A stretch of 64,000 nucleotides of DNA, from assembly GCA_026026165.1 (NCBI GenBank), contig JAPEUD010000016.1, positions 248,001 through 312,000 of the forward strand. The letters are read 5' to 3'. This document shows positions 9,047 through 39,417 of the stretch, one piece after another; within the stretch, counting starts at the first letter, position 1, and every line of letters starts with the position of its first letter. Made by a program: the position numbers and the translations under genes. This stretch comes from Sarea resinae (lineage: Eukaryota). The notes beneath the pieces were generated by a model. That model worked only from the letters and a program-made list of their open reading frames with translations. It ran no database searches and was not told the DNA's origin.

Positions 9047-9365
9047 ACCAACGACTCCTTCCTGTCGCAAATCAAGCCACAAGCAGAAATGGCCTTTGTG
9101 AAATTCGTAGGAGCATCATCAGATCCTTAATTGCTAAAATCCACACTTACATTGTCCAAGCAGAGTCCGCGACGTCTATCCCAAAGCTAGAGCGCAAACC
9201 CAGCTTCAACCCGAGCTCCAACCAACCAGCCCAGCCCATCCCGCCAGGCGTCCGTTGCTCGGGTCCCTGGGGACCCTGTATCCCCCACCTCCCACGTCTT
9301 CCACATGATAGAAAGCGGCCGCCCCCAGACATCTGCATTGTAAGGTAGCCACCTACTCAGAGGAG

Positions 9366-10439: not shown

Positions 10440-11276
10440 TTCACCCCGTCTCACTGTCGACGCCCCCCAAAATCCCATTTAGCTACATGAAGTTGTCGAC
10501 GTCGTCGTTGTCAATGTTGTCGGGGTTCAAAAAGGGGGAAAGGAGGGAAGAAAACGGCGTGTAGGATCTTATGTCAGACTTAAGGAGGTAGGTAGAGCTA
10601 TATAGCCAGAGAGTCCTAGCTCTGTCTAGATTTACGATGGACGTGGAGTGAAAAACTCGCAACTCCGTGAGAAGGCGTATGGGATCCGATAGAAGGAGTG
10701 AGATGCCTGGCATTGAAGGAACAAGTGGAGAAGGAGGCCCGAATGAGCTGGTTATGCGGCAGGTCATGCATGCGTGCGTGGCGCACTGGACGGAGAGCTT
10801 CCCAGACATGTGCTGCGTGATTTGAGCGCACGGAACTCGAGTCATTGGAAGCAACAGCGAAGGCTTGCCTGGGGTTGAGATGGGGTTATGAGGATCTTCT
10901 TTGGTGGGCTGGGAAGAAGAATGGTGCGTGGATGATGTGGAGGGCGTCTACGAACGGCAATTGCTATCCCCAAAGCAGGATCGGCCTTCACTGGAAAGAT
11001 CGGTGTAGAATATGCTGCTGAGCCACCGTGATAGGTTGGTCCCGTCAGCTTTCATGTTCATCGCATTATACTTTTACCTTTGTCCAGTTGCGAGTGTGCA
11101 TTGGTTTCTTGGCGTGAGTCTGGTAAATCCAAGGTTCTTGTGCTTGCTCGGCTTGTGCGGTGTGGAAGCCTCCTTTTCTACCCGCTATCTATCTGAGGGA
11201 TTGTCTCGACCTTTGAAGCTTCTCTGTTCTCTATGCGTGGGTACTCTTGGCGTTGTTGTCGAGAAGCTTCTTCGAC

Positions 11277-14200
11277 CTATTTTCGCAGCGGTTCTGCCTC
11301 CTCTTCTCGATCTTCCCGTTCGAGCCAGTAGAGAAGTTCCTCGGCACTCCTCAAAGTTTGCCAATGCGTGTGACCGAGTACTTCCTTGCTGGATCCGATG
11401 TTCTGACGGATAAGTCTCGCCGCAGCTTCGGCTTTGCCTTTGTTATACAGCGAATATGCTCGTGCGTATTCCGTAAATAGAGTATCGGGATGCTTAGGAC
11501 CTAGTACTTCAGTCTGACCGTCTAATGCTCGTTGATACATCTGTTGCCACCTCAAACGGATCTTGATCTTCCAGGATATCCCCTAGGTCCTTGACGCTAC
11601 CGAGCGTCTTTGGATGCTTGGGGCCAAAGCTTTTCTCATACTGATCGACCAAACGCCAGCCCAGCAACTCAAGTTCGGAGGCTGCTCAGTGACTGTCAAC
11701 ACGGAAGCCCCATTCAGAGTGAGCTGCTCTGAGCCATCACACTCCATCAACTGAAATGCTCTTTGATGTGTTGCTTCCGCTTCTTCGTACTTTTTCTGCT
11801 GCATTAAAGCTTGATTCGGTCATGATCGACTTCATGGGTCCTTGACATTACAGTTATTGCCAATTTATACCACGGCTCTGCCTCTTCATACGCTTCCCTC
11901 TTACTCATACAAGATGCCATATCGCATAGGCTTTCTAGCGTGAGCTTATGATTCAACCTAAAATGCCTCCTTGATGCCTCAAAAACGTACACAGAGTACC
12001 TTCGAACCATCTAGAAGTTCCCCTGTGGGCTTTCCATGTGGGCAAGATTTTGTGTTTCCTCCCAGTTTGGGTGAGCACGAGCGCCGCACATGATCAAGGA
12101 AAAGTTATAGACCTCTGTCCGAAGTTTGTATGCCGCTTCACATTGTCTTTCGTCTATGGAGTAAGACCCTATTGGCCTAAAAGCAGTCCGCGGGATGAAC
12201 GCGCCTTCTCCAGCTGACAGATGAAAAGACCGTGGCGATATATACCTTGTAAATGAGTCTATCTGTCACATACGGCCATAGGTTGTGGAATATAGAGGAT
12301 CCCGTCCGCTCTCCTGTACTCAAACCACAAACCGGCGGATTAGTAGTTGGGTCGGTGACGACCAGCGAATACCCGCTGTTGTATGTTTTTTGTTTTGCAT
12401 TTTGTTTTTGATCCTGGGGAACTAATTCAGCACTATCAAATTTCTTGAGCCTGTTCTGGATTTTCAAGATGCTTTGAGCATGTGGCAATCGCTGCAGGCA
12501 GGTATTCCAGTGTTCGCCGTGAACACGTGTTGAAGAGGGCCTCTGAAGCCAACTTCTGATATTGACTTCTCGTTTGGTTTTCTTCGAGCCAATTCTGCGT
12601 ACATCGTTGCACGATTTGATGCATGGAGTAGGAAGACCGGCCCCTCTCTATTGCGATGAATGAGAAATTCAACAGGGTCGAAAGACTTTTTTCCAAATGA
12701 AACTCGCTTGGCTCTATAAACTCGAGTAGTGACTTAGGTATTTCGCGGCGATCCATCATAGCCATGAAACAGAGCATCTTAGCTGCAGATGGATCCTGCA
12801 GCCTGATTTGCTCGAAAGACAGCCGCCAATTGCCTGCCACAGAGCTTGGCGTGGAAACATCACGTCTCGAGTCATGGGCTTCATGGTTCAGTAATAGAGT
12901 TTGTTGAGCATTGTCGGTTTCGAGGAGGGCAATGAAATGCTTGACAGTAATCTGGCACGCATTGATGAACGCTGCAGCTTGCGTAATAGCGAGAGGGAGA
13001 TTCCCCAGTAGGTCTCTGAGTAGCGCTGTTATAATCTGGGACTCAGAACCATCGTGTTGGGTTTTGTGCCTGAACAACAACTCAGCGTCCTGCCATGATA
13101 ATGGCAATGCCTCGATGGTGTTTACTTTTTCTGCCAATTCCATGCCAATTCGGTTGTCTCTAGTCGTGAAAAGAATAGAACCTTTGGGGTTCTTTGGAAA
13201 ATATGAAACAAGTGGTCGAGATTGATGTTGTTCAAGTGATGGGATATGCTCTGTGGCGTCCACGAAAGTGTTCTTGATGTGCGCGTTGTCCATTACCATT
13301 AGCCACGGTTGGTCCGCCTTATTGAGCCAGTCAGAAACGAGGGGAAGGACGTTGATGTTAGGATCGTCCCATCCCGAGAGGCCAGCAAATCTTGCAATGT
13401 CTTTGTATGCCTGAACGAAACGGGCAGTGTCGCTAGCATGTACCCAATACACATTACCTTCAGGATGTCTGTCTTTAAACCTATAGCAGTATTCAATCGC
13501 TACTTGGGTCTTTCTGCATCGTCGTATAAGCAGATGAAAACACTCAAATGAGAACAGTCCCTTACCCAACTCCATAGATACCTGAGATCGCAACCCTTCG
13601 GGAGGTCTGGAATCTTTCATTGATGCGATTCATGATATCTTCGCGACCAACAAAATGATCGTCTCTGTCATATGGCACCAAGAAGTTCGTTTTCACGGCT
13701 CTGGTAGCTATTATGGTCAGCATAGGCACAACTAGTTGTCTTGTGTGATGTCGAATATGCAAAGAGGAGACCATCCAACTCTTCGATAGAAGACATCTGG
13801 GTTTGACTCCTCTGACGTGGAAAATGGTTTATAATGCACCGAGAACAATGGCATCTTTACCAGGTTCAGGGTGGAGGTCCCTCATCCACCTTTTGATTTC
13901 CGCAACAACCATAATAAAGCCATATTCCTCCGGGGAAACAAATTTTGTCATATTCGTATGATTAGCATGGATAGATATGTGATTGTAGGTCGGGATATTA
14001 GCAGAAGTTGAAGGGACAACCTGACGTAACACAGATGAGTGAGCAAGCCTGCGTCTCAATTATAATTATGGGGGAAAAGGGTATCTACCATAATGCCTTT
14101 AGTCGGGAGTTCTTCGTGGAAACAAGTAATCTGTATTGATCGCTCTCCGCGCCAACGTATTCGTAGCATTGATTGAAAGTCATATTGAATACGTTCCAAA

Positions 14201-15019
14201 ACCTGTGACTCAGGTTTGAGCACTCCAACGATATACGGGTTTGTGCTTAAGGGCCAAATGGATCTGGCCATCCCTTCAGCCCATTTCGCAAGATCTGACC
14301 CTGAATGCGGTGTGCCAAAGAAGACAATCCCACGAGTGCAATCAAAGATTCGTCCTTTGTGAGGCTCGACATTCTTGTAAGATTGGCAGAGGGCCTTGAT
14401 GTTACATTAGCTGCTGCTGCTTAGGAGCAGGCATACGAAGCGATTCACATCCTCACAGACAAGTCCTCCCAAATCATGAGCAACGAAAATTATGGGAACG
14501 TGATCCTGATGAATCGGCAATCAGAGGACAAACTTGCTCAAGCACAAGGACGCAATACACGCAATTTACCGTTTGATCGTCCTCTCGGAGTGCCGCAATC
14601 GCGGACAAAAGAGTACTAGAGTGATGGGCAAGTCGATTGGCTGAGACGGCCTTCCAGCCTATAAATCGGGAATCATATCCATATGTCATGATCCTGGCCT
14701 CGGGGATTTTGGCAGGGAGCAGCGCCTGAGGCCAAGGCTGGGCGGCGCCGTTGGCCGTCCACGTCTTTTCTCGGTGCCCATTCAGACCGTGGATGAATAT
14801 GATACTAGAGGTTCAACCACGGTCAGTCAAGTACGGTCTGATTTTCGGAAATTCTATGAAGCAAAGAGCTCACTCTACAGAAGGAATTTCAGGTCTGTGC
14901 AACACTTTCAGACCAAAGGGAGGACTTTCAGAGCTGCTCCCCGAGCTATTCCGATCCTGATCAGATGAATTTGAGGCGGTGGAAGACCTAAAAAGGCGAC
15001 GGATGCGATTCTGCGGCAT
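11277..15019 (-). pseudogene. Degenerate fungal NLR gene: SesB-like alpha/beta hydrolase - NB-ARC - TPR
   Basis: The N-terminus reads DIIFIHGLNGHREKTW...WPQALLPAKIPEARIMTYGYDS, IIFVAHDLGG and IVFFGTPHSGS. NB-ARC: HFVGRE, Walker A GIYGVG|KTQVA, WLMVMDNA, ILFTTRD, LPLAITQAAAFI and YSMHQIVQ. TPRs include YQRALDGQTEVLGPKHPDT. There is a frameshift near 12520 and in-frame stops (e.g. 12011-12013, 11804-11806). The 3' end is approximate. Confidence 0.85.
12268..12386 (+). rRNA. Dispersed 5S rRNA gene, full length (119 nt)
   Basis: ACATACGGCCATAGG...GATCCCGTCCGCTCT...GGATTAGTAGTTGGGTCGGTGACGACCAGCGAATACCCGCTGTTGTATGT. The ends pair (ACATAC/GTATGT), an oligo-T Pol III terminator follows, and ATATATA lies about 24-30 nt upstream. 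Confidence 0.96.
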
Positions 15020-16022
15020 CGTCCTTTCGAATTCTAGTCTTCGATTCGCATGGAGATGCTTGAAATCAGCATTGAAGGGGTCTCGTAGCTCAGGTAAAGA
15101 TCATGACCAGCAACGGGCTTTTGACAGGCGTTTGCAGAGCAGACAGGAAATGAACAAGGGAGAGCGATGCCATAAATACGCTGGCAATAGGCAGCTAAGC
15201 GCCGAGAAGGATGCCATGCAGGCAATGCAGGCCGACGGCACATGTTGCCAGGGGCACAGCCCCTCGACAGAGCGAGCTCTTTACAGGACTGAAATGACGG
15301 GTTCACAACCGATACATCTAGCAACGAAACGCTGAAACGTGAATCGCATCTTCAGACACTTGATGACATCCACTGCGCGAATGCGCATCGTGTCGCCCTC
15401 ATCGAGGAACGGAAGCCATATGATGTTTCGGCCAATGCTGATGCTGACGCTGATGGTGATGGTGATGCTGCTGGTTGTTAGCACGTAATAGCATCAATGT
15501 CAGTGATGCCAAGCAGAAGCACAGCAGCAGCAACATCTCGATCGACGGCCTCCATCATCTGGGCGGATCGCGGAGAAGAGATCCAGGGAATAGGCATAGT
15601 ACCCGTGCACTGAAAGTAGCACCTACAGCCCGTGACGACAGTGCGGCAGCGGTACTTCCATCTACACGCTATGCTTTGCCATGCCGCGCCGCACGACAAG
15701 TCCTCTTCTGGTATTTCCCGCCTCGTACCGTCCAGATGTATTCGTAACGCCGAGTGACCACCTCCACATCATCCTGGCCACGCTCAACAACAGGGAAAGC
15801 AGAGCGAAGAGCCGCAGATGATACGCAGACCTCATCATCACCATCACCATCACCATCACCATCATCGCCTTCAGCTCTCTGCAACCTCACGATCCACAAG
15901 TCATTACTCTCAGCCTCCACCAAAGAGCCATCATTGCCCATCTGCCTCCCCTGGACCGACTACCCTTCCTCAGGGGATCGTTGTGCTTGTCGGCTGTGCA
16001 TTTCCACCGCCTCCTAAAGTGA

Positions 16023-16912
<890 letters not shown>

Positions 16913-17026
16913 AGTGGAGGAGAGCCGAGATGCTGCAGACGGGAGCGGTGCGAGGTTGCCGATCAAGGGAAGATACCAGAGTAATGTTGGCAGAGAACAC
17001 AAGAGGGCGAGGATGGGCAATGATGT

Positions 17027-17029
<3 letters not shown>

Positions 17030-17058
<29 letters not shown>

Positions 17059-18240
17059 CCACATTTCTAAACAGGACTGAGAGCCAGCCACCACGAGGAA
17101 GCTAGAACAAGCCGGACAACATCAAGAGAGAGCGCCAAGCCAGCAAACCCATTCACCACGTATCCTTCCGACCCCGCTTCGTCAAATATCATCACTCAAT
17201 CACATTTCCAGCTCCTTCAAGCCCTGTACCAACCAACCACCCACCCACCCACGTATCTATACTCGGCCTCACTACTTTCATTTCGACCACACCGCTCAGC
17301 GCTCTTACCTTTCTCTCTCTCTAGCTAGCCGGCGTCTCTCTCTCTCTTTCTCCGTATCAGTCTTTCTCCCTCACTCTCTCTCTCTCTCTCTGTAGTCGGT
17401 GTTTGCATTTCCCATTCCATAGGCCGCTAATTTGTCATTTTTTTTTCTTTTCCCTGACTCATCCTGTTCCCATTCCATTGCGTCCGTGTTCCTTCCGTTG
17501 CATTTCCTTTGTCATCTCATTGCGTCGAGTCGATGCTCGGTGAGACTAAATAAACCTCCCTATCTATCGATCTATCCATTTACTCGTGTGTCTATATGTG
17601 TCTGCGTGTGTATGTATGTATACGTCTAACTCCCCCGTGTCCCCCGTGTCGGTCCTTCCCGCGTGCGTGCATACGTGCTAGTATCCAAGCCTCCAAGCCT
17701 ACAACCCTCAACTCTCAACCATCACTCCTCACTCATCACTCACATCCCCTACAGAATCCCCCTACAGAATCCCCCTATCCCCCTACAGAATCCCCTATAA
17801 TGAAAGTCTTCTCCAAACGAAAGGGGTTAGTCCACGTACCCAATTACGAAACCAGATTACGGAAAAGGGAAGCCAGTCAGGCGGGCGGGGAGAAGGGAGG
17901 GGGGGGGGATGGAAGAAAATGAAAAGGGGGGGAGGGGGCGGGAGATAGAGGTATAGGAGGTAGCGTAGTGAGAAAGGGGAAGAGGGAGAGGGAGAGGGAG
18001 AGAGGGAGAGAGGGGGAGGGGGGGATGATGGTGGTTTTGCCGAGACAAGTAAAATAAAAGCGAGAGGAAAGCAAAGGAAAAGGAAACTAGGTACTTACCT
18101 TACACATTACCTTTACCTTTTTCTTTACCTAGAGATACAGTAGGTAATCTATTTATTTTTAAGTCTTTTATACTCCGTATCTACTCCGTGTACCGTACTG
18201 TCCTAGTGAAATGTATGCCAGAGACCATAGTAGATGTAGT
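17030..18240. repeat. Low-complexity convergent intergenic region: (AG)n, (CT)n, G/A purine tracts, short tandem ATCCCCCTACAGA repeat (~17746-17798)
   Basis: Read directly from the sequence. Confidence 0.8.
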
Positions 18241-18632
18241 CGACGCAGACAGAGATGGACGACCATTATAGAGAATTCGTGCGGAGATCTTAGTGGGTAG
18301 GGATGTGTTTGGTGTTTGATGGCTTGCACTTGCTAGCGTGTGGCATCTGTGGAGGGTTGGAAGAAGGGAGGGGGCTGGATGGTGTGGAGCGGTGGGAAGT
18401 GTTTGCGTTTTTCAATGGTGTGTTGTGTCGGTGTGGTGGTAGCTTGTATTATGCAATTATGTTATCGATAAAATCTATCGTTGAGATTGAATTGTCCATC
18501 TGTTCTGTTCTGCTCTGTTCTGTTCTATGGCCCTATCTACCGGGGGTATCTTCCACATGCACGCGCGCCAGCACCCAAGTACCCGACGCACCGAATGCCT
18601 AGGTACTCAAAACAGCGGCTCCCAAAAGGAAA

Positions 18633-20164
18633 TCACCACAAGATCTCGGCCCCAACGACGCCCGCGTCTTCAGCCACCGCCTCTTCGGCATCATCTTCCG
18701 CGCCACCCTGCAGACTCGGACGAGGTTGTCGTCGGCGCCGGCGGAGACTAGGCACCACGCGGCGATGCCAGGCGCGCACGAAGCGGCGGGCCTCGGTCTC
18801 GGATGCCAGCGAGATGATCCAGTGCTGGGCGCCTGCGCGGGCACGGGCGCGTTCTTGGCCGCGTAGGAGGCCCTGGCGGTGGCGCGGGGGCCGTTTGGAT
18901 GGTTCGTCGCCTTCTTCGGGCGAGGTGGTGGGGTGCTCGTCGATTTCCGAGGCTGGGGGGTCGGACATTAGGGCTACGGGGGCGTCGACGCGCGAGATGG
19001 GTGGTTCCGAGGTGGATAACGACCAGGGCATTGCGCGGTCCTTGCCGTCGGTGTCGACGAGGTGGCGCAGCGTCGTCGGGGTCAGGGTCATGAGGGCTGA
19101 AGTCGACGAGGAGGAGAGCGTGAAGAGCACGCGGAAGGGGTGTTGCTTGTTGTGCGGTTTGGGGTACTGCGGGCGCGGACGATTGCTGGTGTCGCCTGTC
19201 ACCGTGGTAAAGCTAGAGCCCTGGTTCTGGTTCCGCAGCACCATCCGTTCGTAGCCGCCTCGTTCGACTAGTTGTTGGAGTTCGCGCTCTTTGGGAAAGG
19301 GTGCAGTGTGGATGGAGAATACGGGCGGCGTCGAGAGCGCCGTGAGCGTGTAGGCTGTCAAGAGGCTTCCGGCGTCGACGTTGGGGGTCGAAAGGGGCTT
19401 GTTCAGTGGGGTGGGGATGCTGGCGTTGGATTCGTAGAGCGCTAGTGTGCGCAGGGCTTTAAGGTTCGCAATGTATGCGTTTGCGGACGAGGGGGAGCGG
19501 AAGATGAGGTAGTAGTGTGGCTGGGGGGCGAGCGTTCGCGGGTTGCGGCCGGGTATTACTATAGCATACATTAGAAGGAACTTGATCGTCAACAAAAGAC
19601 ATAGACACCTTTCAGGATGTCGCCCTCGTTGCGCCAGCCAGAGATATGTTGGCCTTGAGGCACCAGGCGGCGGAAGTCGTCTTCCGTCAATGACAGGCTC
19701 ATATTTTTGATGATGACCACTGTAGTCGTATCTGGGCCTTTTGCTTGTTGTGTCTGCTTCTTGATTGTGGAGGTGTCGTTCGAGTGAAGATGGGGATCCT
19801 GGAGATCTTGAAAGTCCGACGAGAGAGCTAGTCGCGGGATGTGTCGCTCTGCGCGGGGTTTGGCCGAGCGTCCGGTCCACCATCTGGCTTTGGTGCTTTC
19901 GGGGAACAGTTCCTGGAGAAGAGATATAGCGGGTGTAGGAGGAGGCGTTGTTGGTGCTGGCGAGGGGGTAGACGTGGAGGCGGAGGGGGAGGGGGAGGAG
20001 GGAGAGGGGGAAGGAGATGAGGGACGGTTAGGGCGTTGTTGGTGCTTGGAGACGGTGGTATGAAGACATCGTGCTTGAAGAGCCCGAGTCTCAACGAGGG
20101 TCCAGGACGGGAGTAGGAATTGAGGAGGCAGATGAGGCAGATGAGGCAGATGAGGCGGTGGCAT
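18633..20164 (-). CDS. Conserved fungal hypothetical protein, probably mitochondrial (degenerate RRM-like blocks)
   Basis: Two ORFs joined by an intron at ~19608-19559 give VVIIKNMSLSLTEDDFRRLVPQGQHISGW...ILK|VIPGRNPRTLAPQPHYYLIFRS, with C-terminal WIISLASETEARRFVRAWHRR. The N-terminus has an RCLHTT presequence-like motif. Confidence 0.7.
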
Positions 20165-20899
20165 GCTGCTGTTGATGAGGTTGATGAATCGATGATATCT
20201 GATATCTTGGAGTTTCGTCCAAGTTCCCGCTGTCTACGCCCAGCTGCGTACAGTACAGTATGCCGAGTCTGGCATGGTCCCTCGGTCGAAGCTCAAGCTT
20301 ACCTCAGCAGGCTCAGACCATAGATCACGTGGACCCGGATTAACATCCGGCCCGTTCGGATGAATGACTAATCATTCCCAAAAGGGAAATCCACGAGATT
20401 ATAGTCTGAGGCAGATTTACCAACTTTGTATAGACTGAGCGCGAGTTATTAACGCGTTGCAGATATTTAACTTAGTATATCTCTGCAATTATATCTGCAA
20501 GCATCTTTAAAACCTAATCACCTATGAAGAATATATAAGGCTATGTAATAGTCTGTTTTACATCTTATAAGGATTATTAGTTTAGGATATCTTATGCCTT
20601 AAAGTCAAAAACGTGTTAGTAGGAGCGAGCGGCTTTAATTCTAGCAGATATGCTAATTTGTGACTGCTACAGCAATATCCGCTATATACCTGCAGCGAAT
20701 GATTTCTGATACACTCTAGGTCGATTATAAGCGCCTGTGAGGGCTGTTTTTATCTGTGCTACACCTGCACAACCACCTCGCTATCGACTATATCCGCTGT
20801 TGTTGCTTAGGTTAGATGCCGCTAAAGAAACACACCTGCAGAGAGTTATATAACCGCAAGGTAGATAAAGAGATAGAGCAACAACAGCGCGATAGAATA

Positions 20900-23227
20900 G
20901 CCTATAATAGACTGTCAACAGACAAAGAGCGTTAAATATAGAAGCTGCAAGATAACATTTAACAGCTCTATAATGCGGACAAAGAGGAACAACAAGAGGC
21001 TATTAACGCTATTATCTGCGCGATATATCTATATAGCAGACGGCTAGGGCAGCTGACAGCACTCTGCTAGTTGCTATATACTAAGCAAGACTTATTCCTT
21101 GTCGCTAAGACCTTGTTTAGAAAGAGCATGATAATGCAGTCGCTCCTATGCCTGGTCTGCAGGGCTATAGTTCTTATTATCCTTCTGTTAAATAAGATCG
21201 GCGAAGAGCAGACCGCGCAGATAAGAGGACTCACTAGTATAAAGCCTGTTTATATAACAGGAGATAATAACAACTATCTGCTGCTTAAGGCTATCTGCAC
21301 AGGCGAATATACCTATATCCTAATGTCGCTAGAACTAGCTGTCAGCCTAAAATTAGAGCGGATATAGAAGGATATTAGACTGCAGGCGCGGATATCGCTA
21401 GTGGTCTTAGATAAGGTGCATCTAGTGTTAAATTAGTCCTCCTTCTGCCGTTCTTATGCTAGTCTTAGCATACTGCGCGGATTACTCAGAACTAAGCCCT
21501 GGTTCGCCTGCACTGCAACGCTAGATAATGATACGTTCGCAGATGTACGCTGACTTGCAGGCTTTAGAGAAGATGTTAAGGTCGTCTGCACTTCTATTAA
21601 TCGTCTAGAACTAGCAATCGTCTGAGAATATATGTGTAGAGGCGACAAGCGATCGTTCAATTGCCTCTACTTTATTATTGAAGGCTGCAGCGCTAGTATC
21701 AGGGATACTCTATTGTCTGCCGCGGATGTAACGTCTAGGACTAGCGGACTAGACGCTATAGCATCAGCTGCGCTTAGTCTAGACTGTTCAGCATCAGGTC
21801 AATGTGCTAGTCAGTATTACCAGAATGATTGTCTAACTCTGCAGCAGATAACAAAGACAGTTGTCTTTATAAACAGCAAGCGATTGCTAAAGGAAGCTTG
21901 TGACAAGGTGCGCAGATAGTTGCAAGAGCGCGGATATCTAGCGCGGCTAGCAATGCAGACTATTAGAGTATACTATGCTACGCTTGCAACGAACGACAAG
22001 GAGCAGATATAGCATGAATTTTCAGAACAACTGTCTAGGATCTAGGTATTGTTCTGCTCTGATGCGGTTGCACAAGGAGCAGATATCGCGGATATCAAGC
22101 GTGTCATCTACTTTAGTCTGTTCTGCGACCGCCTTGCGAGCCTAGTCTAGCAACGTTTTAGTCGTGCAGCACGCGGCAGCGGTCAGAAGGGTAAGGCAAT
22201 ACTGCTTGTTAATGACTAGTGTAAGGGTCTAAAGGTGCAGACAAACCTTAGGGGTATTAGCAAGACTGACAGTCAGCAGCGGATCAGGGCTACTGCAGCG
22301 CAGACGCTTGTTTCCTTATCCTAGTCAAGTCAGCTGAGTTAAGAATACAATTGCAGAGATAGTGAGGATTCTAACAATATAAGTAATGTCTCTGTCTCTG
22401 CCTCAATCGCACTGCTAGACAAAGCAGACAGTCAACTACAGACTATGCGAGAATTGACTCTAGGAGGATCGCGTGTAGCCCTACCCGCCGAATTAAGGCC
22501 TTGTCCTACGGATTTAAGGCCTAGAAGCGTGTATAAACAGAGAGCAGACCTTCTACGTCCGCTATATAACTTTGCGAACAAGGAAAAGGCTTGCCTGCAG
22601 CAGATATTCCTGCAGACCTTTAACAAAGACTTAGCAGATAATAGCACTAAAGAGCCTGTTCCTAGCAGACGCTGCTGTTCGAACTGCAATCCAGAACTTC
22701 AGCTGTCTAAAAGGCCTGACTTTAGACTATTTAGCAGTGATATGCTGCAGTCAAAGAACAACAAGCACTTAATTAGCTGGATTAAGCAATGGATATTAGA
22801 CTAGGCGCAGACGAAATACAGCGATATGATTTGGATCCTAGTCCTAGGATGTGTGATTTCGTCTGATGTTGTTTAGCAGATATGCAATCAGAAGCATAGT
22901 ATCTACAACGCAGAAACGCTGCTTCGCTGTGCAGAATAGGATAGAGGAGACTTTAACAAGGCTGATCTAGACTTATTAGCAGCGTTTATCTGCGCGGATA
23001 GTCAGGTTCCGCGTTCATATAGGGATGCACTGATTATAGCCAATTCTCCTTTGTTACTAACGCCACTAGAGTCAAATCAACTGTCTGACCAGCTGCTAAC
23101 AGCCACTAATTATCGCTGTAAATCGATGACTATTAACAAGTTAGCGTCAGACAAGGCACTAAAGAGACAGCGGCTATTAGCTCCTATTAATATAAATAGA
23201 AATATCTGCAGCGAACAAAGGAAGTAA
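20900..23227 (+). pseudogene. RecQ-like SF2 helicase of the transposon (RIP stops)
   Basis: DLFLVAKTLFRKSMIMQ (motif I, AKTSFGKS-like), VVLDKVHLVLN*SSF (DExH), PWFACTATLD, VLFCSDAVAQGADIADIKRVI, QRFSRAAR (motif VI), and Zn-binding C...RRCCSNCNP. Boundaries are approximate. Confidence 0.85.
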
Positions 23228-23305
23228 ACAAAGGCAGACTAAATAGCAGTGAATATCTACAGCGAATAAAGAAGGTAAATAAAGGCGGACTAAATAACAG
23301 TGAAT
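23201..23305. repeat. 51-bp tandem duplication at the helicase 3' end
   Basis: Units start at 23201 and 23252 and differ only by G/A and C/T transitions. Confidence 0.85.
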
Positions 23306-23508
23306 GTAAAGCTATTCGCTTGTATAGCCGCATTAGTTAGCAGCACACCTTTGCATTCGACCTCTTTGTTCGTCTTATAACCCACCTAACTATAACATCC
23401 TTATCAACATCCTTATCAACATTATCAGCATCATTATTATCAACATCATCACTACCCTTATTGACAGCCTATTAGCAGCGATTATATTAGCGTTAAACAG
23501 CTACTAAG

Positions 23509-24849
23509 ATGCCGCCTAGTGAAGCAGACAATGATGAATTGAACTAGTACGTTAAGGCTGTGATTAAGGAGAGGGCCAGAGCACTAGGACCCTTGTAGGC
23601 TATAGCCTAAGGTTATTATCTAAGACAACAACTGACGTGATAACAGCAGAGAGATAGTTGAGACAAATAAGACAGTGAGAGTAGCAGCGAATGTTAGCAG
23701 ACTACTGTTATTACTTCTAGTATGTTGATCCGCCCTATAAATGACTTAGTCAGCCGCAGCTAACAAGACAGCTGCATTTCAGCCGCTAAGAGATAGAGGC
23801 AGCAGAAGAGGTGGCTGCCTACAATAAGAACCCGCGTTCAGATGATCTAGCAAGCGTTAAGAACATAGCCGCTCCTCCTAGTGATACTGTACTGTCTATG
23901 CCGCGTAGCCTGCCATCTCTGCCGTCTGATAAACTATCTTCGCCGCGGTCACCGATGTCTCTGCAGTCTCTGCCGCCTTAGACGCTGTCTCTGCCGCCCT
24001 AGACACCCTCTCTACTAGCTCAGCCGGCTCAACCGGCTCAGACACCCTCTCTAGATAGTCTGCCACTAAGCCAGTCCACTTTTCAGGATAGTACGTGGGA
24101 CGTCTGCCGTCTGATTCAGCCTGACTAGCTAGCCCCTGATCTAGCCGTGTGGGATAGCCTTTCAGAGACTCGCTAAAAGGCATATGCTCACGCTAATCTC
24201 ATTGTGAATGATCTGTACTAGGGCGTTTCACTCACTAGGAAATGCGAAAGGTGCGTTAATAAGGGCATTCTGTGCATGATCTATTAGAGTAGGCTGAAAA
24301 GGCGGATAGTAAAGCTAAGGGACAACTGTGCAGGGTGCTGTGTAGCGGGCAAACCGTGCCGCTATAATGCAGACGCGGACGATAATGACAAAGACGATGA
24401 TGCGCAGCCTGTAAGCAGATTAGCAATGCAGATATCAAACATCACTGACCCTGTATTAGGAGCAACCTCCTCTGCAGCAGGTGACACGTCAATCAGCTAA
24501 ACAAGCAAATGATAATCAAGATAATAGTCCACTGCAAAAGAAGGTATGACAGATCTATCCGCACTTATTAGGCATGAGCTGACGTAGTATATAGAGCTGC
24601 AAGAAGGACAGTCGAAAGCCTATTAAGGAGAGCGATGTCACTAAGCAAGCACCTGTACAGCCTACCGCAACGCCTTCGACGAATATCTGCACCAGCAGCG
24701 AATCAATCATGCTATCCGCACTAGGACAGAGTGCTATAGAACGGCGGGTTGCAGACCTAGGCGCAGAAGTGACCCACCTTAGGGCAGAAGTGGCGCGGGT
24801 ATCTAGAAACATCCTTGAGATATTGGCTATCGTCTGCTGTAGGGCCTAG
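23509..24849 (+). pseudogene. Transposon accessory ORF with Zn2Cys6-like cluster and C-terminal coiled coil (RIP stops)
   Basis: KCERCVNKGILCMIY*SRLKRRIVKLRDNCAGCCVAGKPC (C-x2-C-x6-C-x17-C-x2-C-x6-C, 24243-24359) follows a GCTAAT...TAG acceptor at 24221. The tail reads IERRVADLGAEVTHLRAEVARVSRNILEILAIV. The 5' part and start are uncertain. Confidence 0.6.
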
Positions 24850-25029
24850 TAGTTAGCTTAGTAGTTAGTTTATTAGCGTGTCAGTGCTGTCACACGTTTT
24901 CTAGTATCAAATCGAGTCTTTTGCCTGCGAACATAATATCACAGAGTGATGATATTAGAACATTACACTATAGAATATCCGCTGTGCCCTAGCCGCACAC
25001 GCTACATATCCTGCGCCTAACGAGATGTC

Positions 25030-27845
25030 AATATGACTGTATATTGATAGCAGATATACAAGTAAATGCTCACGTCTAAGCCCACTAAGGCTTGCACTGT
25101 ATCCTCCTTAATATCTCTAACAACTTAGTCGCCTAGTTCTATATATCTGCTGTTAAACAAAGGTAATCCTCTGCGCGCTAATTGATTAACGCCTAACTGC
25201 AGTAGACTAGGTGCAACATGCGCGGATAAGCGATCTTAGCGGCGGATGATTGAATCTTAAGCGATTAGATCAGCGAGACTTTTGATATCTTCTGCAGCAG
25301 ACCTGTCTAGATAAGATGCGTTGATCTGCTCGCCAAACGAGAATTCAAACTGAGCCTGCAGCGGAGCAAGATAGCTGCTTATTAACACCGACTATTTAAA
25401 CAGCGCTGTTACATCGAATGTTGAGTTGCCTTTCGTCTGCAAAAGGGTCTTTAGCTCAAGGTTTAGGAGTTCGTTCAATCGATCGACCTTGAAGAAGGCG
25501 TCTAATCTAGTATAGTTGCTGACAAGACTGTTCGCAAGGATCGCCTGCTGCAGATATTGATCACAGATAGGAGTAGATATTAGCCGCTAAAGACGAATCA
25601 TTTCTCGCGAGTAGTTGTGCGATAAACTCCTACTGAAATATAGACAGCTACAAGCAATAACGCGGCGGAGCAACCTAATATCCGCGCGTTTAATGGCATG
25701 CCTTAACGTTATATATGTCTCGACGTGGTGTAAGAAGCAGACATGATTAGAATACTCTAAATCATGCAGCAAACGCTGTTTATAAGAGCTTCGCTTTTGA
25801 TTAGGCGCTGAAGAAGCTATATCTGCTAGGTCCTTGCTTGTTTCGTACTAGGCTAGTTCCTAATAGGCGGTAGTAGAAAAGACTCTTTAGCGGATATCCT
25901 CTACCTGTCGAAGAAAATCCGCGGGACTTAGTCAGCGGATATATTCAGCTATCTGACCTTTATGCCTGTTCTTAAATCTAGCAGGCAAATCCGATATAAA
26001 TAGAGCAACGATCTGCGCCTGAAAGCTATGCCAGACTAGTTCTTACTAGTAGTAGAATAGCGCTTTATCCGCGGGTATATTCTGACAGCTAAGGAAGTTG
26101 ATATGCGAATAGAGGGTTAAGTATTGCTAGATATTACTCTCTCTGCTATAATGTGACCTGACAATCAATGCTAAAAGGTTTATCTGCAAGTAGAAGAGAC
26201 TAGGCACTAGTAATGCCTAGGCGAGGCGATTGTAGGCATCTGCTGCCTCTACCCGCTCAATTTAGCAAGAGCAGATAAGGCTTGCTGTTTTCTGATCTCT
26301 GAATATCAAGACCAACTGTTTCTCGAAGTTGACTGTATCTTAGCTGAGCTGGCAGACGAATATGTTGTCAAGCACATTATATGTGCCTGAAATAGAACCC
26401 TTACTCTTAGTGATTAGTCCTAGTGTGAGATGCTCTGTCTGCAAGGGCAGAAGAACATTAACGCATAGCATCTGCAGGAATTAAACACTATCCGCTGCGA
26501 ATATAGCCTCTGTCTGTTCTAGAAACGCTGCGCAGATAGAACTAGCAATAAGGTGAGTCAATATCTTGGTCTATGTCTTGTCTATGAAATTCCTGTCCGC
26601 CTTAAGCAGATCTATTACCTCTATACAGATATCTAGATAGTACATGTCTTGAGTGAGTGGTCTGTTTAGCAAGCATTGTCTGCGCAGTAGCTTTCTAGTC
26701 GTGTATAAACGAAAATCTCTGGTATTACCCACAGTCTAGTGTCGCACCCTTTGTTGCCACTCAAAGTTATTGTAGACCACTGTGAAATCCCACGTCCGCG
26801 CCGCGGAGGAGATATTTGCCTTGTTTTAGTTAGCTGGGTCTGCTGAATAGAAGGCGTTAATATCACGTTCCTTGCTCTGCTCTAATATCCGCAGCTTCTG
26901 CATATCAATTGTGCAATATCTGTCTACAAGTCTAAGGCTATGCAGCACGCTTAACGCTTAGCAGGTCAGCCCTGTATCCTTTAAATATAGTCCTAACAGG
27001 CGCGCGAAACAGTTTATAGAAGTCCTTAAACAGCTAAGGCTTAGTATTGATGTAGTCATGACTATTCAGCCTTTATCTGCTAGGGTTCTCTGCTGATACG
27101 CAGTGCTAGACTGTTTTGCCTCTGCTGCACCGCGGATAAGACGTGTAAGCATAGGCGCTGTCCGCTTAATAGTGTCTGCAGTGCTAGAGACATTAAGCTC
27201 CTTAAAACCTAGGTCCTTATTGTATCGCCTAAACAACAGACATTCGCCCTGCAGCCTGTCTAGCTTATTGCAGACAAGAGTAATAGCGCTGTCAACAACT
27301 ACAGCTCAGCCTTTGTCTGCACTAATCAGAAGTGTACAAAGACCCTTATAACTAAGGATAAGGTTAAGAAGGTCTTCTCTTCTCTTTATCTGCCGCCGCT
27401 CGTTACATTCTATAGTGCTCTCTAGCTAGAGTTGTATAAAGTAGATAGGCGTTATCTGCTATTCCTACAGTTGCCTTAGGATGCCTTAGACCTTTTCCTC
27501 TAGGCTTAAACGCTTGGTTGTATCAGGAGATAAAGTAGAAGGAGAAGATAACAGTAGCAGATCAGATATCTTAGGCGATAAACACGAATATAATAGTAGA
27601 TATGCAGGCGAATCAGATAACTCAGGCGTTAAAAGCGAATCTAAAGACAATAATAGCGAATCAGGCACCTTAAGCAGTGATAGCAGATGTATTAATAACA
27701 GTGGTGATAGTGGCGAATCAAGATTAGGCTATGACTGCGGTGCAGATAGTAGAGTTTGCAGTCTCTAAGGTGTATCTGCAGCGGATAAAGCCTCTGTCCT
27801 GCGGCGCTTCCTGCTAGTTCTAGAAAAAGGAGCGGATGCTGACAT
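25030..27845 (-). pseudogene. DUF6589-type (Academ-like) transposase (RIP stops)
   Basis: ATG at 27845 with a KRRR NLS. VVYNNFEW..VRH*T (YDN motif), SKGSISGTYNVLDNIF, LIFRDQKT (GDQxT), VPSLFYLQINLL (PGLFH), HSFQAQIVA, YITLRHAIKRADIRLL...HNYSREM, ILANSLVS and FFKVDRLNELLNLELK. The 3' end is approximate. Confidence 0.8.
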
Positions 27846-28370
27846 TCTAATCGAATATAGAGCAGATCTAGACCTTTCTTTTCAGCCTCTTTTTATTGCA
27901 GACAGCGTTGTGGTTGCAGATATCTTATGGTTTAAAGTTGATGATAATCGCCTCCATACAAATGACCCGCTCAGCCCATACAAAGTCGGTCAAAAGTGCC
28001 TCAGACCTCTGGCTGGTCAATTGCCTAGTTAGGCAATAGTGGTCCGTGCTTAGCGGACCACGTGACCGAGCGAGGTCTGAGCATGCTGAGGTAAAGCTCA
28101 AGCAAGCGACAGACGACTCCGGAGGTCGGGCAGACCCTAGACGCAGATCCCATCACAACGAATTTCAACCGTCCAGGCGTCAAATACTCTCCCATGCCCC
28201 TCTGACCCCTCCACCTCCCAACAACATCAACTGCACCGCTGCACCCACGATGATCAGAGACGAAGGACATTTCCTGCCCTTTTGCATATTCGCGCTGGAT
28301 TCTGGAACCCGATTTGCTCAACCCTTCCGAGAATCAGGTTGATCCTACCATCACCCGCACTACCCCCACC

Positions 28371-30691
28371 ATGGGGGACCCTCCTCGATTCACCGTCCGC
28401 CCGTTCTCGAAACCGGCTCGGACAGACCTCAAGGATGCATTTCGCGTCCATCTCTCCGCAGGGGCCTTGCTACAGCTGAGACTGCGTGCAGGCGACCCCT
28501 GCAGAGTCCTCTCTGTCGATGGGCACGGCGGGCCGGCGATCGCATGGACGGCGCCGGAGAAGATTCAGGACACCTTGGTGCAGACGTCAAAGGTGCTGCA
28601 GAGTATCTACAAACTGAAGTTGGGAGACAAATTGGCCATCTCAAAGTGCGATGGACCTATAGACGAGGCTTCAACGGTGTATCTGCAAGATGTCACCTCG
28701 ACCGAGGGCGATGAGGATGGCTCAGAGGGGTCGGCCGAGAAATCGCATTGGGAGTGGTTCTTGGAATATACTTTGGGTACGCGCGCACACTGCACACCTT
28801 TAGGCCTGGGAAATTGAATAATACTAATCGACTTTCAGAACGAGCGGAATATCTGGTCCCTGGCATGGCGTTTGAGAACGTCGAATTAAAAGGTATGAAG
28901 AAGGCGTTCAAAATAATAAGAATAGAAGGTCATAATGCTGCGGTTCCTTCGATGGGGATATATCGATTTCAAAAAGGATCTCGGACAAAAATTCAGCAGC
29001 AGGGCACGGACGAATCTTCTGCGGTACAAGCATCGTCGCATAGCTTTGTGATTTCTCCAGACGGCATTGGCGGTCTATCCCGGCAGGTCCGGCAACTCAA
29101 TGAACGGCTTCAGACTTTGGTCAACGACGCTCAGGGGCTGAAGATGCCCTCTTACTACAGACGCCGAGGGGCGGTTTTACTCTACGGTCCCGCAGGCACA
29201 GGCAAGACGTTGCTGCTCAACAAGATTGCTGCGCTCTCCTGGCGCAGAGTGCTCCATGTCGACACCTCCATCATCGGCCGGTATACGGGAGATAGCGAAT
29301 CTTCGATACGCAAAATCTTCACAGAGGCCGTTCGCAATCAGCCAAGTATCATCATCATGGATCAGCTGGAAGCTATAGCTACAAAGGGGTCCCGGTCCGA
29401 GAGTCCAGGGATGAGCAACATTGCGTTAGCTTTGGCTGCAGAGCTAGACAAGTTGGAAGGAACTCGTGTCTTTGTTGTGGCGGCCACCCGCAAGCCAAAC
29501 GAGATTGACGAGGCGTTGAGGACTCCTGGTCGATTGCAATACGAGATCGAAATACCCATCCCGGATGCGAATGCTAGGATTGAGATTCTCAAGAGCCTCA
29601 GGGGTTTGCCGTCTAGTGACCCGGATGGCATGTCTGAGGCTCTCGGGGAACGTACTCATGGGTACGTCGGTGCTGACCTGGATGCCGTCGTGCAATTGGC
29701 TGCCGAGAAGGCTCGGTCGAGATACATTATACAAGGCTCCCCTGAGCTTGACGCAGAAGGAAGAGTAGTAGAAGTGCAGCAGGATGACTACGAAAACGCC
29801 CTCGTCGAAGTCCGGCCGACGGCGATGCGAGAGGTATTTCTCGAAGCGCCAAAAGTGCGATGGAGCGACATTGGCGGCCAAGAAGAAGTCAAGCAGCATC
29901 TCCGCGAAGTGGTCGAATGGCCGTTCAAGTACCCCGAGCGGATGCGCCGACTCAACATCGACACCAAGAAAGGACTTTTGCTGTACGGGCCGCCGGGCTG
30001 CTCCAAGACGCTGACGGCAAAGGCGCTCGCCACCGAGGCCGGGCTCAACTTCATTGCGGTCAAGGGCGCCGAGCTGATCAGCATGTACGTCGGCGAATCG
30101 GAGCGCGCGCTGCGAGAGGTGTTCCGGAAAGCGCGCGCCGCGAGTCCCAGCATCGTCTTCTTCGACGAGATCGACGCCATCGCGGGCACGCGCGACGGAG
30201 GGGCAGGAGGCGGCGGCGGCGGCGGCGGCCAGCACAGCGGGCTGAACGTGCTGACGACGCTGCTGAACGAAATGGACGGCATCGAAGCGCTCAAGGGCGT
30301 GCTCGTACTCGCGGCGACCAACAAGCCCGAGGTGCTCGACCCGGCCCTGATGCGACCAGGGCGGCTCGACACGATCCTGTACGTGGGCCCGCCGGACCTG
30401 GCGGCGCGCCGGGAGATTCTGCGGATCAAGACGCGCGCCATGGACGTGGGGGCCGACGTCGACGTCGACGAGCTCGCCGCGCGCACCGACGGCTACTCGG
30501 GCGCCGAGATCGTCAGCATCTGCGAGCGCGCGGGCTATGCGGCGTTTGGCGAGTGCGAGCGCGACGGCACCGAGGTGGCCATCTGCGAGCGGCATTTCGC
30601 GTTGGCGTTGGACAAGGTGCAGCGGCAGATATCGGCGCTGGTGCGGGCGCGGTATGAGAATTGGAGTGTCGGGGGCGCGAGGAAGCTGTAG
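28371..30691 (+). CDS. AFG2: AAA+ ATPase Afg2/Drg1 (SPATA5 family, 60S biogenesis)
   Basis: Two AAA modules: LLYGPAGTGKT and LLYGPPGCSKTLTAKALATEAGLNF, with FFDEIDA and ALMRPGRLD. GPPGCSKT is typical of the Afg2 D2 domain. Intron 28777-28838. Confidence 0.9.
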
Positions 30692-31990: not shown

Positions 31991-32028
31991 CCCCACCCCA
32001 CCCCCACCCAACGCACAGCCCGACGACA

Positions 32029-35000
32029 TCACGCACCAACGAGCGCAAACTCGGCCACCGTAGCCCCCGAGGCATTTCGACTGCGCGGATACGCCTGGTT
32101 GCCCGCGATAGTAAGGGTCACGTAGCGCCCGCTCCAGACGGGCGGCACGAGCGAGACGTTGGTGGTGTTGGAGGTGTAGGGTACGATGGCGTTGGCGTTG
32201 GCTCGGGCAGCGTTCAGGGGCGCGCTGATGGTGATGTTGGAGGAGCTGGAGACGTTGACTGCGGCTGCAGTGGAGGAGGAGGAGGAGGAGGAGGAGGAGG
32301 AGGAGTTGTGGAAGACGACGGCGTAGGAGACGGGCGGGGTCTGGGCCCAGTCGAAGAAGAGGCCCGAGATGGGCTTGTAGGCCTGCTGCTGGTGTTGGGC
32401 CGAGGCGGAGGCGAGGTCGATGGTGATGGAGGTCGAGACGTTGGAGAGCGTGGGCTGCCATTTGGTGCTGCCGGCGCCGTCGACGGCCGCGAGCGGGAAC
32501 TGGCCGGCCTCGTAGGCGTCGGGAGACGTGACGACGGCGGCGCATTGCGCCAGGTTGCCCGGCACGGTCTGCTGGGTGCTGGGCTGGCGGTTGGCGATGG
32601 TGGTGCTGGCGTTTGCGTGCAGCTGGAGCGTAAGCGTGGTCGTGTTCTGGGTGCCGATCTGGATCGGGATGGCCGAGGCGGCGAACGTCCCGTTGGCGTT
32701 GGGTAGAGGAGACGACAAGCGGGTGAGGGTGGTGTGGTTTTGGTTGGAAAAGGCCGAGATGGGCCAGCCTTGGTAGTAGATGGTGCGATATCGCAGCTGG
32801 GGGATCTGGGGCGGCAAGGCCGGGTCGATGGAGATGCCGTCGATGCGCAGACGGAGGCCCAAGTATCCAAAGACGGAAACCTGGTGGTGGCCGCCCATGC
32901 CGGTCAAAAAGGGGAATGCCGGATGCGTGCCCCCGTTCGCCGTATAGTCGTCCACGAGCTGCTCGGAAAATTGGTACCAGGGCCCGCGGGCGTAGGGCTG
33001 GCTGGCGTAGAGGTCGTACGTATAGGAGGAGCAGCCTGCAGGAGATATCCCGTTGGCGATGATGCCAAAGACGCCGTAGGTCATGCCGGGGCCGTTGAGA
33101 GATTGTTTTCCTGCGTACTGTTCGGAGACGTCAGTGTTGAATCTTTCGGGTCTCATCTCAATCACTCACATAGTCGAGATCGTTTAGGGTATAATTGTTG
33201 GGATACGCCAAGGGGTAATCGATAAGAACTACATCCGCTTGCTTGACATTGATGCTGCCGTTCATGCCGGTGTACTCCAAGATGATATCCGCGTGGTCGT
33301 TCATCGGGAGGTCGATATCAGAGGTCTGCAGAGTGAATGTCTGGTTTGAGGAGATGTTGAACATCTTGCGTAGCGTGTTGGCGTTGTTCAAAGTCGTCGA
33401 TATCAATGCCTGAGTATAGCCACCATTGTCGACAAAGTTTGCATATTCATCCTGCGACAAAAATTAGCAGCGTCTTGCAGACTCAAAGAAAACCTACGGG
33501 ATCCGTAACGTTGGTGACGGCCCATTGCCCCGTCGAGGCATTCTTCTCCAAGAGGTCAGAATAGAAGATGGCAATAGAATTGTAGACCGGAAAGAGTTGA
33601 CTCTTGAAGAATTGACCATCGCCAGTCACGATCCAGTAATTCAAAAGCTCCGTGGCAATATCGCCGTTGATATGATATTCGTAATCAAAACAAGGCCCCG
33701 TAGCAGTGCAATTGCCGAATCTCGCGCTGGTCCAGGGGAAGACGGCGCCCTCCGGGGAGAAGCGTCCCGACTGGTTCTTTGACGATGTAAAAGCGGTCGC
33801 GAGATTCCTTTGAGCTTGCGGATATTTGGCCACGCGATAGTTGGCGATCTGTTGAGCGGCTTGGGGATGGGCGACGACCAATCCCGGCGCCATCCACGTC
33901 TCAGAGTCCCAGAAGACCTGTCCTCCGTAAGAATCAGAAGCCAGGCCCGCCACGGGGATGCTGTTGCTGTTGATCGGCGCGTTGCCTGCCGCCGTCGTTG
34001 CATTCGCACCGACTGTATTCTGAAGCAGATGAAATGCATTCGTGACGGCCAGAATCGCGAGATCGATGACGTTGGGGTCCGACGGAAGCGTGCCGTTTTC
34101 TGGGAAGCTGAAATCATCCACGGAGTCAGGGGTCAAAATGCTGGTCCATTCCTGTGCATGCGTCGACAACGACTGCGAGAATCCTGCTGTCATTGCCGAC
34201 TGTGAAGCATTGCGGGCCACCATCTGCGGATTGACAAAGGCATCGGTAGAAGCAATTCCAACGTATTTCTCCATGACCGTCGTCTGACCTGCCTTTAAGC
34301 TGGCACTAACTGCCTGAGCGATAGAGGAGTCATTCGTTCCTATATAAGGCGCTCCTGTAAGCCGGTTACGGGAACTCATATCGATTGTACCATTCATCGA
34401 GCTCATGGTAGAATAAACGTAGGCGGTGATGTTGCTGATCCCAACTGGTCGAACGGCGGTCCAAATGGTCGATGAATTCTGCTCATGTGCTTTGTCGACG
34501 AACACAGTCCGGACAGCGGCAGTGCCGTCGAGTACATCCGCAATAGTGACATTGGTGTCATTTGACGGCGTTATCGTCAGTTGAACGAATCCTTGATTCA
34601 CGCTGAGTTTGTGGAGGAACAGAGAGTATTGGATATCCAGGGACAATCCGCCAGAGCCGATCGGTGTCCACACAAAAGACCATGTCATCAAAGCATTCCG
34701 AATATCCAGCGTAGAGCTAAAGTTTGATATCGTGGACTTTTCCACAGAGGCGTTGAGCACTTGACCATTGGGCATTTCGACTACCAGGCCACCCCAGTGT
34801 GGTATACCACTGACCACACTATCCCCTCCATACTGATCCAGCCATGGGAAATTACTGCCATTTGTCGAGGGCTGGGAATCATAAAAGCCGGCAATACCCG
34901 CAAAGGACTGTCTTCTGGTGAACAGTGGCCAACCTTCAATATCGTCGCCGTCCACGGATACGTCAATGTCAAAAAAGGGTCCAACAGCAGCAACGTTCAC

Positions 35001-39100: not shown

Positions 39101-39417
39101 GGCGGCGAGAGATTCTTCAGCATCTGTGCCGTCGAGGATGGCGACGGGCCAATGTGCCTTCGAGGAAAGGAATCCAGAGGGGCAAAGACCGAACGGCCAG
39201 GATCGGTGGGGGCATTGAGCGGATCCTCATTGGTAGTATCTGCCGCCGAGCTTGAGTAGAAAGTTCTCCGCTGGGATCCCCGAGCGACGTGCGAGGCTCG
39301 CACACATGGTCGACATGCTGTGAGAGGTGACGATCGAGCGTGATGGATCGATCGACTTGCGGGGGAGATTGGGAGCCGTCGAATGCTCCAGCGCATCCGG
39401 AGACCTGACGACGCCAT
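36106..39417 (-). CDS. GCV2: Glycine dehydrogenase (decarboxylating), glycine cleavage P protein, mitochondrial
   Basis: [54 protein letters not shown]-lysine motif [18 protein letters not shown]. Intron 36245-36195 precedes [11 protein letters not shown]. Presequence starts [10 protein letters not shown]. Confidence 0.96.

Follow-up and report, generated by a model that had tools for sequence, protein, structure and literature searches.

A stretch of 64,000 nucleotides from Sarea resinae (contig JAPEUD010000016.1, positions 248,001 to 312,000; hereafter the window) contains at 20299-28094 a copy, complete but dead, of what is very probably a cut-and-paste DNA transposon of the AcademH type. 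The element measures 7796 bp and retains both termini, a target site duplication (TSD) and two genes, a RecQ-like helicase on the plus strand and a DUF6589 transposase on the minus strand, which are convergent, each reading inward from its own end in a single frame. Both genes appear to have been inactivated by repeat-induced point mutation (RIP). The element belongs to a kind that is already known; what might be new about it is a pair of terminal palindromes. An earlier interpretation made from the letters alone (the sequence-only reading) had already proposed a full-length element, and this stands, though its ends needed correction. The features of the element, in window coordinates, are as follows.

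20290..20298, no strand: left TSD copy, 9 bp, AGCTCAAGC; identical to 28095-28103 and abutting the terminal repeat
20299..20319, plus strand: left terminal inverted repeat (TIR), the true terminus, TTACCTCAGCAGGCTCAGACC; found by inverted-repeat search
20310..20412, plus strand: left-end palindrome; core arms 20312-20322 and 20400-20410
20402..20446, plus strand: left subterminal conserved block; inner palindrome arm GTCTGAGGCA and a further conserved stretch
20816..23182, plus strand: RecQ-like superfamily 2 helicase pseudogene; about 789 codons in one frame, 18 stops, limits approximate
23183..25070, no strand: spacer between the convergent genes, with short tandem repeats; no gene recognised
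25071..27845, minus strand: DUF6589-type putative DDE transposase pseudogene; about 925 codons, 28 stops, C-terminal limit approximate
27963..28007, minus strand: right subterminal conserved block; from inverted repeat and end alignments
27997..28083, minus strand: right-end palindrome; core arms 28072-28081 and 28000-28009
28074..28094, minus strand: right TIR, the true terminus; found by inverted-repeat search, and contigs of run X1 (see below) depart here
28095..28103, no strand: right TSD copy, 9 bp, AGCTCAAGC; read from the sequence

Termini and target site duplication

The outer inverted repeat pairs 20299-20319 with 28074-28094 over 21 nt with one mismatch. This terminal repeat has just two matches in the window, and none of 100 shuffles gave two. 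The element is bounded by TTACCTCAG...CTGAGGTAA, and directly outside it lies the TSD AGCTCAAGC, which is exact over 9 bp; counting the terminal A/T would make it 10 bp. When Logan contigs of run X1, the probable source sample, were mapped on 18800-29600, three of them were seen to leave the window sequence exactly after 28094. At the left end, bases 20299-20324 match element ends in six metagenome loci (L057, L054, L049, L046, L041 and L029) at 96%.

A second inverted repeat, 20416-20441 with 27968-27993 (26 nt, 85%), lies further inside, within a similar block of about 45 nt. The sequence-only reading had taken this block for imperfect TIRs of about 45 bp and had therefore placed the ends of the element at 20402 and 28007. 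The repeat itself is real, but it is subterminal, about 100 bp inside the true ends: it consists of the inner palindrome arm and a further conserved block, no TSD flanks the inner pair, and the outer termini lie 103 bp (left) and 87 bp (right) beyond it. The ends at 20402 and 28007 were thus wrong, and 20299 and 28094, with the exact duplication outside them, replace them. Because its inverted repeat was not the terminus, that reading had also failed to find the TSD, which is present at the corrected ends.

The transposase gene

When 20290-28110 was translated in six frames, with X for each stop, and scanned against Pfam, only the plus frame from 20291 and the minus frame from 28109 gave matches. 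The minus frame matches DUF6589 (PF20231) with an E-value of 1.3e-42 and 146.4 bits, against a gathering cut-off of 27. It contains 28 stops, 25 of them TAA or TAG, and can be aligned from end to end with intact relatives without a change of frame. Motifs conserved among these relatives (YDNF, GDQKT, PGLFHLRMN, AIKxGDIG and DRxNExLN) include three that are mutated in the window copy, to YNNF, RDQKT and PSLFYLQ, by changes of the C-to-T or G-to-A type; the first of these turns the first catalytic-candidate Asp into Asn.

The D of YDNF, the D of GDQKT and the E of DRxNExLN are conserved among the relatives, with D453, D694, E698 and N701 present in 90% or more of 83 sequences. An AlphaFold2 model of the intact relative P0004 (83 sequences) reached a predicted local distance difference test score of 82.4 and a predicted template modelling score of 0.82. 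In the model, the first D lies on a strand, the second D directly follows one, and the E belongs to a helix about 245 residues further on; these are the structural elements expected for an acidic triad, which makes the three residues candidates for the catalytic ones. In a VIA-align comparison, the closest structures to the model were the P-element transposase (Z 10.0 over 362 residues, root mean square deviation 7.7), Hermes (9.0) and ISCth4 (8.1), with RAG1 (6.9) and Transib (5.0) further down, and the top 29 rows were all DDE transposases.

The helicase gene

The plus-strand gene matches Helicase_C with an E-value of 1.3e-8 when the frame from 20291 is read with stops as X and of 1.9e-9 when its open reading frame (ORF) is searched alone; a match to RecQ_Zn_bind is weak (0.0084) and below the Pfam cut-off. 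It aligns over its whole length, in one frame, with the intact helicase of the metagenome locus L001 (28% identity over 659 aa, E 4e-68). Among solved structures, the L001 helicase is closest to RecQ (2.6e-28), RECQL5, WRN, BLM, RECQ1 and RECQ4, which make up the top 37 of 49 rows. In the window copy, 16 of the 18 stops are TAA or TAG. Walker A reads AKTLFRKS, against AKTSFGKS in the intact relative, and motif II reads LDKVH, against IDEAH, and these changes are again of the C-to-T or G-to-A type.

For both genes, the sequence-only reading has held up well. It had described a RecQ-like helicase reading inward from the left end, a DUF6589-type protein reading inward from the right end with its YDN, GDQxT and PGLFH motifs each mutated, and many TAG and TAA stops in both; the DUF6589 and helicase domains for which it had proposed a search are those matched in the Pfam scan above.

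RIP-like decay

The GC content of the element region is 0.44 (range 0.43-0.48), compared with about 0.53 in the rest of the window and its gene-rich flanks. This bias is confined to 20299-28094, and its boundaries coincide sharply with the termini. RIP is indicated by a TpA/ApT index above 0.89 and by a substrate index, (CpA+TpG)/(ApC+GpT), below 1.03. TpA/ApT is 1.24 in the element and 0.59 in the rest of the window. Within the element, CCA/TGG is depleted 5-fold, while CTA/TAG and TTA/TAA are enriched 3.3-fold and 4.4-fold, respectively.

Together, the two pseudogenes contain 46 stops, 41 of them TAA or TAG, and no frameshift in about 1700 codons; the other two frames of the same DNA on the same strand have 63-79 stops. 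The single alignment column that holds W in 12 of 12 relatives reads TAG in the window transposase. The intact relatives L001, L013 and L014 have TpA/ApT values of 0.69-0.83 and stop-free frames of 760-947 aa, compared with 153 aa for the longest in the window copy. Other relatives (L032-L055) form a second group, in which both indices are RIP-like.

The contigs of run X1 extend this picture to further copies. Summed over these contigs, depth reaches 3057-7507 across the element, as against 237-357 in the flanks (9-22 times as much), a measure that does not translate into copy number. A total of 1721 contig pieces were placed, 695 at 99% likeness or more, 591 at 95-99% and 435 at 90-95%. They define 212 variant places, all of them transitions (96 C>T, 93 G>A, 12 A>G and 11 T>C), so that 189 are C>T or G>A relative to the window copy. 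Run X2, an air metagenome, contributed just three small pieces. Because all variant places are transitions, these data support RIP: the element family is multi-copy, and its copies differ by transitions alone, the pattern that RIP leaves. The inactivation by RIP that the sequence-only reading had proposed is supported by the base composition, by the contrast with intact relatives and by the finding that the copies vary through transitions alone.

Relatives of the element

A full HMMER scan with the read-through transposase (stops as X) returned 553 proteins at E-values of 1e-3 or lower and 54 at 1e-30 or lower, the best being 38% identical; a word-indexed protein search with the same read-through sequence gave no matches. 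Pfam searches of 16 transposase matches showed that 15 carry DUF6589 alone, the exception being P0018, a 270-aa N-terminal piece. The named relatives come from Sclerophora amabilis, Sarea resinae, Ascosphaera atra, Ilyonectria destructans, Metarhizium anisopliae and Fusarium solani, genera that span several Pezizomycotina classes, and all are annotated as "hypothetical protein". P0018 is encoded on another contig of the Sarea resinae metagenome-assembled genome (MAG) and matches the N-terminal part of the window transposase, outside DUF6589, at 49% identity, which points to a second copy or fragment of the element family that was annotated as a gene in the same MAG.

Metagenome relatives were collected as 65 loci, whose contigs were scanned with an alignment of five transposase sequences. 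A homologue of the window helicase was detected by tblastn in 18 of the 65, and most of the others are contigs of 1-4 kb, on which the pairing could hardly be visible. In 17 of these 18 loci the helicase gene lies downstream of the transposase gene and convergent with it, and in the remaining one (L049) it lies upstream. L001 is apparently intact: over 6191 bp it encodes a transposase, split between two ORFs, and a helicase of 835 aa in which the DEAD and Helicase_C domains are both present. The termini of the relatives are conserved as TTACCTCAG, followed by 3-4 nt and then CTCAG(A/G)C, and this conservation holds across elements whose transposases are only about 30-38% identical to that of the window. 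The sequence-only reading had suggested looking for TSDs in other copies; among 11 candidate terminal pairs of these metagenome relatives, four have exact 9-bp duplications (L032, the outer pair of L038, L054 and L055), and three have 8 matches of 9 (the inner pair of L038, L041 and L044), with transitions as the mismatches.

Several of these loci have peculiarities of their own. In L038, the pairs 6892-19400 and 8255-19383 look like a nested insertion whose target was the family's own TIR: one element, which has the 8/9 TSD T[A/G]AGCTTGC, lies inside the terminal repeat of another copy of the family, which has the 9/9 TSD CTACTTGCC. L054 contains at 189-9592 a 9.4-kb element with both conserved termini and the exact 9-bp TSD GCGTGTTAA, in which tblastn detected no helicase homologue; it may be a helicase-less derivative. 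In L055, the left terminus is tandemly duplicated at 538-620, with two TTACCTTAGTAAGCT.. tips 57 bp apart, and the outer tip pairs with the right end to give the 9/9 TSD. Finally, the elements in L032, L041, L044 and L055 (11-13 kb) have about 6 kb of extra DNA between their genes, and all four copies are heavily RIP-like (TpA/ApT 1.4-1.6). The spacer of about 6 kb in L041 has no Pfam match, and the matches in this locus are confined to DUF6589 and Helicase_C.

Terminal palindromes

Both ends of the window element carry a local inverted repeat. The left palindrome pairs 10 of 11 positions around a loop of 77 nt (4 of 100 shuffles were equally good), and the right one pairs 10 of 10 around a loop of 62 nt (0 of 100). 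Folded as single-stranded DNA, the left end forms a long imperfect hairpin of -26.4 kcal/mol (z -5.85, equalled by none of 200 shuffles), and the right end reaches -30.4 kcal/mol (z -8.43); the four ends of L001 and L014 gave z values of -2.9 to -6.3.

The same arrangement is found in the related elements. All 22 ends of 11 elements are laid out in two blocks: they share the tip and, further in, a GTCTGAG block. Each of the 22 also has a local inverted repeat that starts at CTCAG, 12-17 nt in from the tip; its arms measure 10-22 bp and its loop 28-77 nt. For 20 of the 22 ends, no more than 1 in 100 shuffles reached an equal score. The palindrome sequence differs between left and right ends and between families, and pairing is kept by covariation. 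The nine positions that follow the conserved 7-nt core agree, on average, with 7.55 of 9 in their own partner arm, whereas agreement falls to 2.64 of 9 with the partner arm at the other end of the element and to 3.41 of 9 with ends of other families. Several palindrome positions show three or four different Watson-Crick pair types across the ends.

We tentatively propose, as a possibility that we rate well below even, that the ends of this lineage are structured DNA, a conserved tip of 12-13 nt followed by a palindrome, and that extrusion or melting of this structure is needed, which would make transposition a helicase-assisted DDE reaction. If the transposase did require such extrusion or melting, the presence of a RecQ-like helicase of their own, which sets these elements apart from almost all DDE transposons, would be accounted for.

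Alternative explanations

The architecture, TSD length and taxonomic distribution of the element fit membership of the Academ superfamily, and the DDE-type transposase, the RecQ-like helicase, the 9-bp TSD and the pairing of the two genes in 18 of 65 loci all support the AcademH-like assignment made in the sequence-only reading. The element could also be a genuine transposon whose DUF6589 family forms a separate superfamily that resembles AcademH and acquired its helicase convergently. For this speak structural neighbours that are generic DDE transposases with an insertion domain (P, hAT, IS256 and RAG1) and the TSD length, since 9-bp duplications are also made by Mutator-like elements. However, a DDE-type transposase with a separate RecQ-like helicase and a 9-bp TSD is exactly the combination given for AcademH in the relevant passages of the citing papers. 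In addition, Basidiomycota, Mollusca and Mucoromycota are the taxa in which DUF6589 clusters of the ESM Atlas occur most often, a spread that parallels the reported distribution of Academ, which is abundant in bivalves (PMC10294476) and in Pucciniomycotina and Mucoromycota (PMC5751038). We therefore regard a separate superfamily as unlikely and retain the AcademH assignment. It is far less probable still, to the point of being negligible, that the inner inverted repeat (20402/28007) bounds the real element and that this is nested in an unrelated miniature inverted-repeat transposable element supplying the outer repeat and the TSD. The presence of two distinct inverted-repeat pairs, with no likeness in the sequence that separates them, would suit such nesting, but the two-block layout is common to all 22 ends of the related elements, the inner pair lacks a flanking TSD, contig depth rises in the bin holding 20299 and falls in the bin holding 28094, and the three X1 contigs depart at the outer terminus.

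As for the decay, normal ageing, or a non-specific deamination of methylated cytosines such as affects silenced repeats, would agree with a substrate index that is not depleted and with the lowering of C in several contexts (CCC, CCG and TCG). Yet neither would readily produce 46 stops without a frameshift, composition boundaries that are sharp at the termini, or variants that are transitions at 212 of 212 places; the strongest single signal, CCA to CTA and TGG to TAG, is in the CpA context, and the bias is missing from intact relatives. Decay without RIP is accordingly very improbable. Several observations nevertheless weigh against the reading of the element as an AcademH transposon inactivated by RIP. 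The substrate index is 1.19, not below 1.03, and it stays at this value because GCA/TGC is spared. Run X1 is not independent of the window, its summed depth does not count copies, and no empty site (no joint) was seen in the contigs of runs X1 and X2. Among the relatives, the duplication of L001 is 8 bp only, and L002, L013 and L014 have none (L014 with only 8 flanking bases). Foldseek matched the P0004 model best to Hermes, the P-element transposase and RAG1, with weak E-values (best 2.9e-3), and the one paper found to mention DUF6589 draws no link to Academ.

Spacer and surrounding sequence

The spacer between the convergent genes has tandem repeats of 51 bp (2.1 copies, 23201-23305), 12 bp (4.7 copies, 23394-23449) and 21 bp (2.2 copies, 23967-24013). 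It has no Pfam match and no tblastx match to the 65 metagenome loci, and an Rfam search of 19500-29000 gave no family match. A few-stop frame of the spacer contains the pattern CX2CX6C-X17-CX2CX6C on the plus strand at about 24240-24360, which has no counterpart in the relatives. The idea of a third gene in the spacer was dropped, as the region of the Cys pattern has no zinc-cluster match and only a chance-level match to EGF_Sp38_C (0.052). Stop-free segments cross the reconstructed empty site in four frames, which is uninformative in a GC-rich flank and carries no claim of gene disruption.

The flanking ORF 36232-39732 encodes a glycine decarboxylase that is 100% identical to a Sarea resinae MAG protein, with the next match at 77%, which supports the ascomycete host that the sequence-only reading had assumed; in the taxonomy, Sarea resinae belongs to the Sareomycetes within Pezizomycotina. 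Elsewhere in the window, 11000-14000 is mildly AT-shifted (GC 0.45-0.49) with normal RIP indices, and an ORF within it (12436-13629, minus strand) has a weak DUF7779 match (2.1e-6). The intergenic segment 30800-31700 is of low complexity with TAGG/CTCT-type repeats; it is RIP-like by its indices (TpA/ApT 2-4, substrate index 0.45-0.8) but consists mostly of simple repeats, and it adjoins a region of GC 0.62-0.72 at 32000-33000.

Proposed mechanism and significance

In the mechanism that we envisage, the transposase would bind composite ends made up of the conserved tip TTACCTCAG..CTCAGACC, the palindrome and the subterminal block, excise the element and insert it with a 9-bp stagger, which would give rise to the duplication of AGCTCAAGC. 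The helicase would act as an accessory factor, and we would guess that its task is to open or remodel the palindromic ends or to aid repair of the donor site. The family would then have multiplied in the genome before RIP-type C:G to T:A hypermutation struck its copies. In the window copy, this would have added the 46 stops and destroyed Walker A and the DExH motif of the helicase as well as the first catalytic-candidate Asp of the transposase, all without a frameshift.

For a lineage of helicase-carrying transposons, the analysis now gives exact ends, the TSD and a terminal signature (TTACCTCAG..CTCAGAC), by which copies degraded by RIP become findable. It also shows that a RIP-like process is active in Sareomycetes and that it spares GpCpA, which is unusual. 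The covarying palindromes provide a concrete hypothesis for the purpose of the helicase, and the apparently intact soil-metagenome relatives L001, L013 and L014 offer testable transposase-helicase pairs.

Comparison with known systems

The AcademH lineage of the Academ superfamily reportedly goes back to Kojima 2020 (Mobile DNA 11:15). The window element resembles it in its TIRs, in its transposase with a separate RecQ-like helicase gene, in its TSD (9 bp here; 9 or 10 bp for AcademH in a passage of PMC10045372) and in a fungal, low-copy occurrence that includes Ascomycota; this is a likeness by description, and none of the features compared differs. AcademH is given as low-copy in Basidiomycota, Ascomycota and Mucoromycota in a passage of PMC10799480 that cites Kojima 2020, which goes against the statement in the sequence-only reading that these elements had been described mainly from basidiomycete or early-diverging fungi and animals, and Academ as a whole is listed as "low copy, in most taxa" (PMC5751038, Table 1). 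The supplements of PMC10799480 contain none of the terms "PF20231", "DUF6589" and "Academ". AcademX elements, presumably of the same transposase superfamily, differ in having an XPG nuclease and a TSD of 3 or 4 bp (same passage of PMC10045372), whereas the TSD of the window element is 9 bp and Pfam found no XPG domain in any frame of this element or of the relative L041.

More distantly, the modelled relative shares the fold of the transposases of the P element, Hermes (hAT), IS256/ISCth4 and RAG1/Transib, in which a large helical insertion separates the second D from the E of an RNase H-like core (Z 10.0 to 5.0); sequence identity is only 8-12%. To our knowledge, none of the P, hAT, IS256/ISCth4 and RAG1/Transib elements carries a helicase gene. 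Helitrons have a Pif1-type helicase fused to an HUH nuclease and are not known to have TIRs or TSDs, and Kolobok makes TTAA duplications. Helitron and KolobokH likewise encode a helicase of their own, according to a passage of PMC10799480; the window element differs from both in combining a separate, RecQ-like helicase with TIRs and a 9-bp TSD.

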